A DNA stretch of 63,259 bases, counting the filler, from Rhabdomonas costata (Eukaryota): assembly GCA_019059605.1 (NCBI GenBank). It is 33 parts of 33 records of this genome, joined end to end, with 100 filler letters (N's around TTAATTAATTAA, not from the genome) between each part and the next. Parts side by side here need not be neighbours in the genome. Positions count along the whole stretch, not along the records: positions 13,445 to 15,265 come from JAHMHO010008590.1; 32 more parts are not named here. One strand, 5' to 3'. Below the pieces are notes generated by a model, which did no database searches, had not been told where the DNA came from, and saw only the letters and a list, made by a program, of their open reading frames with translations. A program made the translations under genes and the position numbers. How positions within the stretch are numbered: position 1 is the first letter of the stretch; each line of letters starts with the position of its first letter. Below, in pieces: positions 13,445 to 42,151 of this stretch.

Positions 13445-14208
13445 ATTTTTATTAATACATATTGAATATGTAAGAACTTAATTTGTTTATTTACCATATC
13501 GATATCTGTTTGTAATAAAATAGTAGTTTGTTTTGTTGTTAATAAAGAGAATAATTCAGGAATATCAATAATTAAATTAATATATAAATTCATATTTAAT
13601 AAGATTTTAGACAACTCGGACATTGTTCTATTTATTTTCAAGATTACATATGTGTAATCTGGAAATTGTTGTATTACTGAAATAATATGTCGCGAATATG
13701 TTACAATAAAATCATAACAATAAACATATTGTGAACTATCTGAATCAGATTCTAATAATTTTTTGATACCACATGTTGTAATAAATTCACGTTCCATATC
13801 ACTATTAGGTTCAATTTGACGAACCATACGAATAATTTTTTTGGGATGTGTATCATGTTTAAATACAAGACTGTAACTTCCTTTATTAAGATAATCAAAT
13901 TCTTGTTTCTGTACATCTAAAGTTATACCATAAATACCACTAAAAACAGCAGGCATTACATTTTTTAATATATCATCCATAAATTGTTTTTCACCTGATG
14001 TAAATTTACATATTGGTTTGTCACATATTGGCATACCTTTTGATGGGTTATCTATGTATGGTGTCTTTGCTGGATTATATTTCAAAATTGTAAACGTATC
14101 ACCAGATTGTGAATACTGATAATATCCGCCCAATAATGTTTTTTGTAAGTTATCATACTTTAATTTATATTTTTTATATTTTTCATAGTAAAAATTATAC
14201 ATATACAT
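13445..14208 (-). CDS. Giant-virus protein with an N-terminal YYEKYKKYKLKY..L motif and a kinase-like N-lobe (3' truncated)
   Basis: Intronless and very AT-rich. MYMYNFYYEKYKKYKLKYDNLQKTLLGG is the KYxKYKxKY leader common in Mimiviridae/Klosneuvirinae proteins. LNKGSYSLVF...KIIR...EREF resembles kinase subdomains I-III. Confidence 0.8.
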
Positions 14209-14241
14209 TATCTTTATAAATTATAAATTTATAAAAATAAT
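14207..14241. terminator. AT-rich hairpin, putative Mimivirus-type polyadenylation signal
   Basis: Perfect 10-bp stem tttataaatt/aatttataaa (14213-14222 / 14226-14235) extends to 15 pairs with one mismatch. It lies right at the stop codon of ORF 14241-14453. Confidence 0.65.
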
Positions 14242-14453
14242 TATGTATTTTTATTAGCTTGTGTCTGACTTGAACTATCAATTGTTGTTATATAATAAGT
14301 TGTTGATGTCTTACATATTGGTACAATATAATTTTCTATTGAACTTGTATCAATCATCGAATTAAAATCATTTAATTTTGTAATGTTTTCAAGTACTTGA
14401 TTTAATGCTTTATTATAATCATTATTAATGTATTTGTTTAAAACATCCGCCAT
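14241..14453 (-). CDS. Small viral hypothetical protein (70 aa)
   Basis: ATG-TAA ORF filling the space between two viral-type genes, preceded by taataATG as its neighbours are (taATG), and followed by a hairpin. Confidence 0.6.
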   Translation of the reverse strand: MADVLNKYINNDYNKALNQVLENITKLNDFNSMIDTSSIENYIVPICKTSTTYYITTIDSSSQTQANKNT

Positions 14454-14494
14454 TATTACATTATATATACATATAATTAAACATTAGGAGTATA

Positions 14495-14502
14495 AAAATT
14501 GA
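14495..14502 (+). promoter_or_regulatory. Mimiviridae early promoter AAAATTGA
   Basis: Exact octamer 56 nt upstream of the ATG at 14559, in an AT-rich divergent intergenic region. Confidence 0.8.
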
Positions 14503-14558
14503 AATATAAATATGTTCATAGTAGAACAGAAAAGATCTAAATATATTATAAATATATA

Positions 14559-15265
14559 ATGTTTAGATTACCTAAAGAGACTATAATAAAATGTTTTTTT
14601 TATTTAAATCAACAAGAAAGAATAAATATAAGAAAAGTAAATCGTCGACTACGAGATTTAAAATATTTTGTTGAAATAAAAAAAGATGTTCACGTTAATA
14701 CAAATATTTTTGAAGTATACAGACAATGTTTAACACGTTCTAAATTTTCAATTTATGTTACCATTACAGAATTAGATTGTGGAAGAAATATAATAATAAC
14801 AGATGAAGATATTAAATATTTAAAAAAATTAAAAATATTAAAATGTGGTCAAAATAATAAATTAACAAATAATGGATTACAACATTTAAAAAATGTAACA
14901 AATCTTCATCTGGGATATAATAATAAAATTACAGATGATGGAATACAACATCTTAAATTAAAAGAATTAAATATAGGTTTTAACATGCATATAAAGAATG
15001 TTGGAAAATTTAATAAATTAGAAATATTAAATTGTGGTGCAAATGTTAATGTAACAGATGAAGATACTAAATCTTTAAAATTAAAAATATTAAAATGTGA
15101 AATGAATAATAATATAACTGATCATGCTTTAAAATTACAACCATTTATAGAAGAATTAGAATGTAATGATGTAATGACAGATGATGGAGTAATACATCTG
15201 AAAAGATTAGTATATATTAAATGTAACATAAAATTAACAAAAAGATGTATTCCAAAAACAAAAAA
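14559..15265 (+). CDS. Viral F-box + leucine-rich repeat protein (3' truncated)
   Basis: N-terminal F-box-like LPKETIIKCFFYLNQQERINIRKVNRRL followed by LRRs of the form L..L.CG.N..ITD.GI.HL; intronless and AT-rich. Confidence 0.85.
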
Positions 15266-38305: not shown

Positions 38306-39156
38306 ACCACACNNNNNNNNNNNNNNNNNNNNNNNNNNNNNNNNNNNNNNNNNNNNTTAATTAATTAANNNNNNNNNNNNNNNNNNNNNNNNNNNNNNNN
38401 NNNNNNNNNNNNTGTTTTGTTTCGATCTTCGTGTTGCCTTTGGGTTGGAGCCTTCATTTGCTGCTATCAAAAGCGGCAAGTGCGGGAATGTGGTATTGTG
38501 CAAGTGTTTCGAAGTTTCCACTTTTGCCGTATACTTCTGTGTTGTTTTTGGTGAGCTCGTCCCCCTGACGATCAAAACGGCCTGTGTGACCGGCAGAAAC
38601 TGCTATGCAAGAGCTGTCGGACTAAAACGTAGTTATCTTTTTGGGGGGAGAATTTTCCATTTCCCTCCCGTTCTCTTTGGTTTCTTCAGTTTGTCCTACC
38701 TTTGTTCTCTGGGCTGACTGGAGAGCGCAGAGGAAGGGGTGAGGCTGATGCCTTTTGAGGGTTGTTGGGAACCACTACTGTACGTACTTTCAAGATGCAG
38801 TGGCAGTGTGCGCCGGTGATGGCGATGAATCACATCCGCAGAGTTTGCTGTGGTTTCTTCGCGGCTTATTTATGTGCATGTGTGGGCTTGGGCACTTTAT
38901 CCGCCAAATAGGTGTCGAGGTGGGTATGTCTCGAGATATAAGGGGAGGAGAGAGAGTAGGGAGGAGCGGATTTCTTGGAAGTCTCGCGGGGGGTCACGTG
39001 TCCCCTATGTGAGGTTCCTGGTCTCGCAGGTGGCGTTGCATTCTACCTTGGGAGATTTCCAGGATGTCTTGAGAAGCGCATCTAAACGGCCCAAGATCCT
39101 AGCATTTTCTGAGATACAGCGGGAGGGGGGTCACTTTTGGGCATGGGAGAGTTTTT

Positions 39157-39217
39157 GTTCTGTTCTGTTCGTTCTGTTCTGTTCTGTTCTGTTCTGTCCT
39201 GTTCTGTTCTGTTCTGT
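39157..39217 (+). repeat. (GTTCT)n pentamer microsatellite
   Basis: Visible, slightly imperfect. Confidence 0.93.
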
Positions 39218-40948
39218 TTTGTTTGTTGGTGTCGTCATTGAGAAGAAAAGAGGAGTGGTTTCCTCCAATTCGTTGAGCAAGGACGCGTTGTGTCTCCTGG
39301 TCCTCGATGTCAGTGTCAGGCGTGCTTGCGGTTGCTGTGTACTGTCCCTTGGCCACTCACCTCCGAGACCACCCGAGCGCCCAGATCCCGTACAACTCCG
39401 CGGCTTCCTCCACTATAAGGGCATCACCCCGCAGCCGGGCACCGCCACCCGCATGTCGTGTGATGCTGACGCTTCTTGTGCGAGGACTGTGAAGTATCGT
39501 TTGGTCAGGGGCCAGGGGTTTCAAAGACCCCCTCGGACACGGTCGGCGAGCTCGCTCACAACCTATCCAACCAACCAGCAACCCCCTTGCAAGGGTGGCC
39601 CACAAGGGCGGCACATTATCTGGAAGAACAACGACGCCTGGAGCCAGAATTCCGAGAAGATTCTACCTCCCATCCGTCATCCCCCACACGACACACTCCC
39701 GATCGTCAGCGTCCGCGGTGACTCGGACGCGCAGTGCACCCCACAGCTCAAGCCCGCAGAGACCCAGCAATCGTCCTGACCCACCCTGCTTTTGTCCGGG
39801 ATGTTTCCTTTTCCCACCTTGGTGAAGAAAAGAGCAACAAAGCATGGCTTGCGTTTTTTGCGGCTTTTGTGCTATATAAGGGAGTGACAATCTCGTTGTC
39901 ATGGGCACACCTTTCCATTCAGAAAAACCTGTTGGTGGCGTTCGAAGAGTTTGGGTTCGTCGCAAATAAGAGGCTTCGTTTGGGTGTCTTTCACCTAATG
40001 GGGTTGCGCACAGTAGTAAGTAAGTAAGTAATTGTTCCCTTCAGTTCGTTTCGAGTTGCAGCCTCTGTCGTTTCTCTTCCGCTCTCTCGTGCTTCATTCT
40101 CGGGCTTGTGATCATGGCTTGCAATTTATGCTGTGGGAAAGCCTGTAAGGTGGGGCTTCGCCAACTGCTCTCGCTGAGGGTGCTTCTGGCCCTCTCTTTC
40201 ATCGTGCTGATGGTCATCTCGGGGTTCATCGGNNNNNNNNNNNNNNNNNNNNNNNNNNNNNNNNNNNNNNNNNNNNTTAATTAATTAANNNNNNNNNNNN
40301 NNNNNNNNNNNNNNNNNNNNNNNNNNNNNNNNTGAAGCCTCGGGCGCCCCGTGAAGGAGGTGGTGGGGTTAGCAGTTATGTATGCATCTCGGGGGAGACT
40401 AGTGCATCGCTTTCTAACCCTTTGGGACACAGATAGCGATACACGAGCCACGGAGCCACGTCCGTCTGGGCACGTCCGTATACGTATATTATACGTATAT
40501 ATTAGCGTTGATGTGGACTCCCCAGGACTCACCCACCTTACCACACTAGCAAAACCGATGAAAGAACTTGAACTCCTTTTGGCCCCCTTTACTCCCTCCT
40601 TTCACCTTCTGCCACATGATTCGCGTGCAACCGTCCTGTATGTATGCTGCACTTTTCCTTTCCGTTCACCCTTCAACTCCAATGCAATGCCTCCGACCCC
40701 CAACCAGTTCACGCACGACTCGTTGCGCACCAACCTTCTCCTTTCTTTTCTGTTTCCGCCACCGCAACAGTGCTGCCCAGTATTGCAGCGCTGTGATTCT
40801 GCTCTGAAACATTCACAGTTAATCAGAAGGGCCCACGCTCTGCCGAATTTTGGAGGCTGAGCCCATTCGGTAGCTTCCAAAACGTTAAAAAAACGCAATC
40901 GAACCGCAAGAAAATACCTCCAACTCATAAAACAAAAAAGCAGCTCAC

Positions 40949-42151
40949 CTCAGCCTGCGGTGGGTTCCCCAGTAGTTGATGTACACGACGGTGCCAAATC
41001 GGAACGAGTTTGGAGAGCAAGGCTCGATGGGAGACACTGTTCCAGAGGCAGCTTTCGAAAGAGGGCGGCCAGAAACAGATGCCACAGAGCTGGTCTCTGT
41101 GGTGCACTCCTCGAGGGCATATGCTACAGCCGAGGAAGACGGTGGCACAGGCAACCGGGGCCGGTGGCGACGGGTGGGAGACAAAACAGGGAAGCGTCCG
41201 AATCCAGGCTCCAGATTCCGCTGGAGCGAAAGGCAATGGGGCAGGAAGGGTTTGTACCGAGCGAGGCAGCCCACCATCACCGCGAACGAGTGCTGCACGG
41301 AGCTGATCTCGAGGAACGCCGAGGAACTACGAACGGCATGAATTCCTTCGACATCCATGAAGGCCACCAAGCTCATCTCGTGGGAAACCCGGGTCACCAC
41401 ATGGACAACCTTTACGGCCATCCCCGTGCTTACCACTAAAGAGCCACACATCACCACAACAAGCACAGCGATGATGACACTCCTGGACGTGTTCACCGAT
41501 TCTGCTGCTTCGTGTGTCTGCTGAGCAAGGGCATCGGTCTCCAAAGCGAGCTTCCCCAACACACCACCAGACACCGCCATTTGCGAGAGAGCCTGGTCAC
41601 CCTGCGTCATCGCTTCGGCAACATCATCTGCGGAGGAGCTGACCTGCTCCACAAAATCTCGAAGGGCGCTTAGCTGCCACGTAAGAAGCTGCAACCCTTC
41701 CCGAATGAAGACGTAGGTGCTGAGCAGAAAAACCGTCCCATTGACCGAGAACTTTGAGTAGGCCGTGGGGACATCGCGAAGGCTTCCATATGTAACCTCC
41801 AGAAAGGCCACGCTGGCTTGAACCACGGGGTGCGGAAATAAACCAACGGGATATCCCGGAATCAGGCCCCCAGCTGAGGAGTCGTTGTAGAACAATGGTA
41901 CCCCAGCACACGTGTGGGCGATCACCGCCGCATCACCATTCCCGGAAAGGTCCACAAGAACCGCGACCGATTTCTGGGAGACAAGGCTGCGGTGCAGCAG
42001 CTCGCTCAGGAAGCCCATCTCCAAATCCGCACCGGGGATGAAAACAATCTCACTAGCCCGCAATCCAGCTCTTATCCGCGAAAACAGGAGTCGAGGGGGC
42101 CGAGCAAGCCCGTCCACATCATCGGCGTAAATATACCGAACCCCCAAAACA
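40949..42151 (-). CDS. Receptor-type adenylate-cyclase-like protein: extracellular region, TM helix, HAMP-like linker (1.2-kb exon)
   Basis: 400 open codons with TM IIAVLVVVMCGSLVV and then VSHEMSLVAFMDVE...SAFLEISSVQHSFAVMVGCLARYKPFLP, the linker seen before protist class III cyclase domains. Ends at donor gag|gtgagc. Confidence 0.7.

Follow-up and report, generated by a model that had tools for sequence, protein, structure and literature searches.

The octamer AAAATTGA and hairpins at gene 3' ends have been listed as key features for recognizing Mimiviridae, even from partial sequence (PMC6163669). Among the closest described systems, moumouvirus carries the octamer at 37.7% of its genes and a hairpin at 78% (PMC3542560), and Bodo saltans virus (BsV), a klosneuvirus, is reported to combine a AAAAATTGA promoter with palindromic hairpin terminators (PMC5871332). 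Megavirus proteins are known in which an N-terminal F-box is fused to a solenoid of FNIP/FGxxFN leucine-rich repeats (LRR), and these have been proposed as selectors for degradation (PMC9525666); for the repeat proteins of amoebal viruses generally, a role linked to the Skp1-Cullin-F-box (SCF) ligase has been proposed (PMC5753266). Here, we describe an AT-rich contig (JAHMHO010008590.1, positions 13445-15265) that lies in a window of 63,259 nucleotides from the assembly of the eukaryote Rhabdomonas costata (GCA_019059605.1) and that is very probably a fragment of an undescribed, AT-rich, Imitervirales-like giant virus (Mimiviridae in the broad sense). The contig holds three open reading frames (ORFs), the first of which begins with a short leader, referred to below as the KY-GG leader, that recurs in giant-virus contigs of other origin.

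Results

Three densely packed ORFs on one AT-rich contig

An initial annotation, made from the sequence alone, had assigned this contig to a giant virus, and that origin stands as the best reading because independent signatures converge upon it: an extreme AT bias relative to the other contigs, dense and uninterrupted genes without Shine-Dalgarno-like sequences, the giant-virus-type N-terminal leader of ORF1, a candidate early promoter element at the right distance from its gene, a putative A/T terminator palindrome, and an F-box/LRR gene of a kind that abounds in klosneuviruses and tupanviruses. The guanine-plus-cytosine (GC) content of the contig is 0.214 over 1821 bp, compared with 0.455-0.577 for the remaining 32 contigs, so the compositional outlier described at the outset is fully borne out. 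The same is true of its three tightly packed, intronless ORFs, which are uninterrupted, make up a coding fraction of 0.92, and are separated by spacers of 32 nt (GC 0.03) and 105 nt. ORF1 and ORF3 are certainly real, because 2000 Markov shuffles of the contig yielded not one ORF of at least 200 amino acids. The length of ORF2 alone is not beyond chance, since 244 of the 2000 shuffles reached at least 70 amino acids; a coding role for ORF2 has moderate support from its codon-position composition (GC at third positions 0.13, purines at first positions 0.73), its exact fit into the gap between its neighbors, and the hairpin that follows its stop codon. As read from the sequence, no purine run resembling a Shine-Dalgarno sequence lies ahead of any of the three starts, which argues against a cellular source.

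The KY-GG leader recurs in giant-virus contigs

The N-terminus of ORF1 (MYMYNFYYEKYKKYKLKYDNLQKTLLGG) carries the KYxKYKxKY motif that the initial annotation had pointed out, accompanied by Y at -3, L at +11, and GG at +17 relative to the motif. By amino-acid composition arithmetic, this motif would turn up by chance among residues 1-15 of one of the three ORFs with a probability of around 1e-6. A degenerate DNA pattern for the motif was scanned over IMG/VR and returned at least 120 loci, for which 146 matches were listed; all counts given below for viral loci, for their genes and leader proteins, and for the bacterial and archaeal controls are counts among the matches listed. A leader was scored as N-terminal if the motif was in frame and began no later than residue 15 in an ORF with at least 60 amino acids. 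This was the case for 77 of the 146 matches, and 54 of these 77 had a GG at +13 to +24. Contigs named GVMAG, a label for giant virus metagenome-assembled genomes (PMC7162819), accounted for 71 of the 120 leader loci. In a control scan of bacterial and archaeal genomes (at least 120 loci), the motif was N-terminal in 1 of 121 matches and was followed by GG in none, which again speaks against a cellular origin of the contig. The KY leader is real and is strongly tied to giant-virus contigs.

A profile was built from 76 of the 77 N-terminal leaders, one containing an X having been dropped, and its consensus reads M-x(3-9)-Y-x-x-KY[LI]KYKxKY[LI]xLK. The individual positions are occupied by Y at -3 in 55 of the 76 leaders, L at +2 in 58, L at +9 in 59, L at +11 in 65, and K at +12 in 56. 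In 53 of the 76, the earliest GG is located between +13 and +23; the commonest position is +16 (17 leaders), and 9 leaders have it at +17, as ORF1 does. When these 53 leaders are aligned on the GG, Q occupies position -2 in 32 of them and conservation stops sharply at the GG itself; the leader is a peptide of about 25 residues, M..Y..KYLKYKxKYLxLKxQxGG. The proteins behind the leader are diverse: Pfam identified thioredoxin (3 proteins), LRR_6 (3), Ank_2 (2), histidine phosphatase (2), and Pkinase (2), with single cases of DUF885, beta-lactamase, RCC1, PBP, acid phosphatase, E2, and alpha/beta hydrolase, and no Pfam family covered the leader itself in any of the 76 proteins. The thioredoxin domain in locus L002 (5205-5549, + strand) begins at residue 28, directly behind the leader GG, and in locus L087 (10377-10673, - strand), a string resembling a kinase glycine loop follows the GG.

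Leader genes also differ from other ORFs in what lies upstream. Under a first ORF definition, AAAATTGA was present within 150 nt upstream of 1 of 75 leader genes. A second definition took the first ATG after a stop and required at least 60 amino acids, the motif in the first 30 residues, and at least 150 nt of upstream sequence; with it, the octamer was present upstream of none of 68 leader genes versus 201 of 1165 other ORFs. The hexamer TATATA showed the reverse distribution, occurring within 25 nt of the start in 47 of the 68 leader genes versus 265 of the 1165 other ORFs; it was absent from 21 of the 68, as it is from ORF1. TATATA has been reported as a late motif of African swine fever virus (ASFV) and pacmanvirus (PMC11788076). 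This pattern suggests that leader genes form a distinct, non-early, and probably late expression class. ORF1 has neither an upstream AAAATTGA nor an exact TATATA within 25 nt of its start, and it would be driven from inside ORF2 or by read-through, because the 32-nt spacer leaves no room for a promoter.

Beyond its leader, ORF1 is isolated. A search with residues 1-40 gave nothing at E <= 10, the IMG/VR scan gave no relative, an atlas search with residues 1-30 gave no usable match, and the best tblastn match in the fetched viral loci was confined to the leader (residues 1-36, 53% identity). The body of the protein is possibly kinase-like, which we treat as a lead only: a language-model atlas returned the SteC kinase (0.90) and YrbL (0.87), and the strings KGSYSLVF and DIDMVN, picked out by eye, agree with these leads, while the Pfam kinase profiles gave no match at E <= 1. 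A single-sequence AlphaFold2 (AF2) model of ORF1 was unusable, with a predicted local distance difference test score (pLDDT) of 34.8. In Pfam, the leader also matched DUF5604 weakly (E 0.16), a domain placed in human SETDB1, and this match was rejected as chance.

A candidate mimivirus-type early promoter element precedes ORF3

The initial annotation had reported an exact early promoter 56 nt before an ATG, and AAAAATTGA does stand at exactly that distance from the start of ORF3. Its octamer core, AAAATTGA (14495-14502), is present in a single copy in the contig, on the ORF3 strand and upstream of one of the three genes; the chance of finding it on that strand within the 105-nt spacer is 0.028. 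To place this element in context, ORFs of at least 100 amino acids were scored for the octamer within 150 nt upstream. It was found in the sense orientation for 175 of 884 ORFs in the leader-bearing viral loci and in the antisense orientation for 63 of the 884, compared with 12 of 720 ORFs in the bacterial loci. Its distance from the ATG was 30-69 nt in 140 of 184 viral occurrences, a range that includes the spacing at ORF3, and the agreement of AAAAATTGA with the spacing typical of viral loci is a further point against a cellular source. At least one gene with an upstream octamer was present in 75 of the 120 leader-bearing loci. Given this proportion and the peak at 30-69 nt, the viruses that use the leader therefore largely share this early promoter, at a spacing like that of ORF3. 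Two further features were observed at the ORF3 start: a weaker palindrome spans the start codon (14535-14568; 16-nt arms, 81% complementary, 2-nt gap), and the sequence directly before the ATG is ATATA-rich despite the early motif upstream.

An A/T-only hairpin lies between ORF2 and ORF1

The 3' hairpin described initially was recovered in the gap that separates ORF2 from ORF1, with the stop codon of ORF2 in its extended 5' arm and the ATG of ORF1 in its 3' arm. No other tight inverted repeat on the contig is as strong, and its stem was equalled anywhere in 1 of 300 shuffles. Folding of the minus-strand RNA from 14255 to 14195 gave -15.1 kcal/mol (z -4.63), a value that none of 200 shuffles equalled. 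The hairpin sits at the sole complete gene 3' end on the contig, and we infer that it may act as a 3'-end processing and polyadenylation signal of the ORF2 mRNA. Stems of at least 12 bp were found around the stop codon (about 100 nt) of 177 of 919 ORFs in the viral loci, with 13 at mid-ORF positions. The stem on our contig is purely A/T, unlike the G+C-rich intrinsic terminators, and this too counts against a cellular origin.

ORF3 encodes an F-box/LRR protein

The F-box plus LRR gene named in the initial annotation is ORF3, in which both domains exceed their Pfam cut-offs: the F-box (PF00646) scores 22.6 bits against a cut-off of 20.5 (E 9.7e-5), and LRR_4 scores 32.7 bits against a cut-off of 27. 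In a PDB search, the repeats were nearest to internalin (E 2.6e-6), nischarin, and Roco LRRs. With 5 sequences as input, AF2 gave a model (mean pLDDT 70.6) that predicts regular strand-helix repeats with a pLDDT of about 78-91 over residues 71-180 and is weak over the F-box (pLDDT 42-50). The sequence search returned 5 relatives at E <= 0.001, with 28-36% identity, 4 of which are unnamed metagenome proteins. ORF3 had no relative in the IMG/VR scan, and a profile made with its relatives had no conserved stretch; its best relatives, P0004 and P0006, were not found in IMG/VR, and P0004 was not found in metagenome_contigs either.

Fold comparison of the ORF3 model with BFVD gave 86 matches at E <= 0.001. 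Among the top 50, the organisms were Hyperionvirus (20), Harvfovirus (7), Catovirus (6), Klosneuvirus (2), Barrevirus (2), Edafosvirus (1), BsV (2), Tupanvirus (2), Mimivirus LCMiAC01 (3), Pithovirus LCPAC (4), and one unnamed. Mimivirus-type organism names thus account for 45 of the 50; we take these 45 to be Mimiviridae and 40 of them to be klosneuviruses, a placement that for BsV is published (PMC5871332). Matches named as F-box or F-box/LRR proteins came from BsV, Klosneuvirus, Barrevirus, and Tupanvirus. The matches show that the architecture of ORF3 is at home in such viruses, and they do not imply descent from them. The more specific hint at Klosneuvirinae comes only from fold-level LRR matches, the count of which is biased by large LRR families.

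Features of the contig and of the remaining window

The coordinates of all features are collected in Table 1.

Table 1. Features identified on the AT-rich contig (positions along the window)
Feature	Position	Strand	Description
AT-rich contig	13445..15265	.	1821 bp, GC 21.4%; N spacer on each side; ORF cut at both ends
ORF1	13447..14208	-	254 codons; start at 14208; 3' end cut by contig end
KY-GG leader	14125..14208	-	ORF1 residues 1-28; KYKKYKLKY at 10-18; GG at 27-28
A/T-only hairpin	14207..14241	-	16-bp stem, 1 mismatch, 3-nt loop; fills the 32-nt ORF2-ORF1 spacer
ORF2	14241..14453	-	70 amino acids plus stop; start at 14453; no known family
Divergent ORF2-ORF3 intergenic spacer	14454..14558	.	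105 nt, GC 0.14
Candidate early promoter element, mimivirus-type	14494..14502	+	9-mer AAAAATTGA, 56 nt before the ORF3 ATG (14559)
ORF3	14559..15265	+	235 codons; 3' end cut by contig end; F-box + LRR protein
F-box	14562..14660	+	ORF3 residues 2-34; starts LPKETIIKCFFYL; PF00646
LRR solenoid	14754..15215	+	ORF3 residues about 66-219

The window (1-63259) consists of 33 contigs of 1818-1827 bp, joined by 32 regularly spaced N runs around the 12-mer TTAATTAATTAA. It is a slice of a fragmented and apparently length-sorted assembly, not a single locus, and any feature that crosses a spacer is an artefact. Scans of the whole window with Rfam and for transfer RNA (tRNA) found no ribosomal RNA, tRNA, or other family, a result that counts against a cellular origin of the AT-rich contig. 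An exact 27-mer from that contig had no match in IMG/VR or in the JGI metagenome contigs. Elsewhere in the window, the contig at 17288-19107 is spanned entirely by a single 606-codon ORF on the + strand with pentatricopeptide repeats (PPR_2, E 6.6e-30), a feature typical of organelle-bearing eukaryotes and the sole clue to the host. Another 606-codon ORF spans the whole contig at 48009-49828 (- strand); Pfam gave no match for it at E <= 0.001, and the same holds for the ORFs at 40948-42150 (- strand) and 38829-39776 (+ strand).

Discussion

We consider it very likely that the AT-rich contig derives from an undescribed Imitervirales-like giant virus, and a number of observations weigh against this interpretation. 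A Pfam search of the 1.8-kb contig found no core gene of an NCLDV (nucleocytoplasmic large DNA virus), such as those for the major capsid protein, PolB, A32 ATPase, VLTF3, or viral RNA polymerase. ORF1 had no homologue in either a word-indexed search or a full phmmer search of 1.84 billion representative proteins, and its leader departs from the consensus, with K in place of L at +2, D in place of L at +9, and Q missing from the position two residues ahead of the GG. ORF2 had no match in the two sets searched, Pfam and the fetched IMG/VR loci. For ORF3, no named giant-virus protein appeared in the sequence search at E <= 0.001, the fifth relative there was a Rickettsiaceae LRR protein (E 3.1e-4), and BFVD, which holds viral proteins only, cannot separate a viral from a cellular origin of the gene. 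The control for the leader is confounded by composition (median GC 0.23 in the viral loci versus 0.31 in the bacterial loci) and covered bacterial and archaeal genomes only. The octamer AAAATTGA has a chance expectation of about 0.77 copies per contig when both strands are counted. Stems of at least 12 bp are likewise enriched around the stop codons of bacterial loci (80 of 763 ORFs, with 2 at mid-ORF positions), and the 3' hairpin was accordingly downgraded as a discriminator between virus and bacterium; alone, it is a weak marker of giant-virus origin. Lastly, the octamer is not exclusive to Mimiviridae, because it is reported upstream of 44% of pacmanvirus genes and also in ASFV, some Iridoviridae, and a pacmanvirus transpoviron (PMC11788076). 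The initial annotation had called these signals established Mimiviridae traits, which should be qualified. The octamer and the hairpin are indeed listed as key features of the family (PMC6163669), and neither is exclusive to it; the KY leader is tied to giant-virus contigs, and we found no paper describing it.

Three alternatives deserve consideration. The first concerns the state of the DNA rather than its origin: giant-virus DNA may be endogenous in a eukaryote nuclear genome. The contig is short and of the same size as the fragmented contigs around it, which could fit a host-like low coverage and constitutes no direct evidence; it shows no host flank or junction, its ORFs are intact, and its composition has not been ameliorated, none of which is decisive. 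On balance, we regard endogenization as unlikely. The second alternative is that the contig belongs to another AT-rich lineage of Nucleocytoviricota, such as a pithovirus-like or a pacmanvirus/asfarvirus-like virus, or to a giant-virus-associated virophage, transpoviron, or polinton-like virus. The distribution of the octamer just described would accommodate this, as would the report that pithovirus also follows the hairpin rule (PMC4402537) and the 4 Pithovirus LCPAC proteins among the top 50 BFVD matches. Against it stand the mimivirus-type names of 45 of those 50 matches, for which the family is mostly our own assumption, and the coexistence of leader and upstream octamer in 75 of the 120 loci; the contigs of many of these measure 50-400 kb and far exceed virophages or transpovirons in size. 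F-box/LRR genes are moreover typical of large giant-virus genomes, and we judge this alternative to be improbable. The third, an AT-rich cellular genome (a bacterial endosymbiont such as a member of the Rickettsiales, a nucleomorph, a microsporidian, or another AT-rich eukaryote), could draw on the Rickettsiaceae relative of ORF3, on the frequency of 3' hairpins in bacterial loci, on the occurrence of F-box plus LRR proteins in amoeba-associated bacteria and eukaryotes, and on the compact, AT-rich genomes of nucleomorphs and microsporidia with their many relative-less genes, and it is more improbable still in light of the leader, the promoter spacing, the A/T-only stem, the starts free of Shine-Dalgarno-like sequences, and the absence of Rfam families set out above.

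If the contig is from an Imitervirales-like virus, as we favor, its DNA would either have been sampled together with the eukaryote that was sequenced or be integrated there, and its signals can be assembled into a provisional scheme. ORF3 would be transcribed early from the AAAAATTGA element, and its F-box may dock on the host Skp1-Cullin ubiquitin ligase, so that the LRR solenoid could pick host proteins for ubiquitination. The transcript of ORF2 would end at the A/T palindrome, to be cleaved and polyadenylated by viral enzymes as in Mimiviridae. ORF1 would be a member of a large giant-virus class that shares a modular N-terminal leader of about 25 residues. Gly-Gly sites are cut by a viral cysteine protease in ASFV and adenovirus, and the leader might be a late-class delivery signal into the virion or the viral factory that is possibly cut after its GG by such a protease. 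We raise, tentatively and as a possibility rather than an expectation, the idea that AT-rich giant viruses use the KY-GG leader as a modular signal for sorting or processing that is as yet undescribed. Full-text and keyword searches of the literature found no description of the leader, and the passages searched in papers on mimivirus virion interactions and on viral-factory clients make no mention of it. Were the sorting-signal idea true, a new virus lineage using a divergent form of the leader would be the source of the contig.

Giant-virus passengers are common in protist data, and a lone 1.8-kb fragment is an ordinary find of a known kind that proves no infection. Giant-virus sequences in eukaryote assemblies nevertheless record contact between virus and host, and the intact genes and signals of this contig point to a virus lineage without a close relative in the collections searched. 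Its practical value is as a flag for binning the AT-rich part of the assembly. The KY-GG leader, for its part, is a sequence tag that recognized giant-virus DNA in a case where searches by homology had failed; proteins that are expressed late, sorted, or processed may form the class it marks.

Compared with described systems, the contig resembles Mimiviridae in its signals, having the exact octamer and 9-mer before ORF3 and an A/T palindrome after the ORF2 stop, although it offers a single instance of each and neither is exclusive to that family. ORF3 resembles the F-box/LRR proteins of klosneuviruses and other Mimiviridae in placing an N-terminal F-box ahead of short LRRs, as in BsV A0A2H4UU74 (named an 'F-box/LRR domain-containing protein'), Klosneuvirus A0A1V0SKR7, and Tupanvirus A0A6N1P1I2. 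Across the top 50 BFVD matches, the fold E-values range from 1e-10 to 1e-5 and the query-normalized template modeling scores (TM-scores) from 0.35 to 0.63, whereas sequence identity is 16-31% and none of these proteins surfaced in the sequence search. The megavirus F-box plus FNIP proteins share with ORF3 the fusion of an F-box to an LRR-type solenoid and differ from it in their repeats, since those of ORF3, as read from the sequence, are not of the FGxxFN type. Finally, ORF1 is unlike the leader proteins of IMG/VR in having no L at +2 and +9, no Q before the GG, and no start-proximal TATATA, and its body is unrelated to theirs, but it has in common with them an upstream region free of AAAATTGA and, within the leader itself, the KYxKYKxKY motif, the Y at -3, the L at +11, and the GG.

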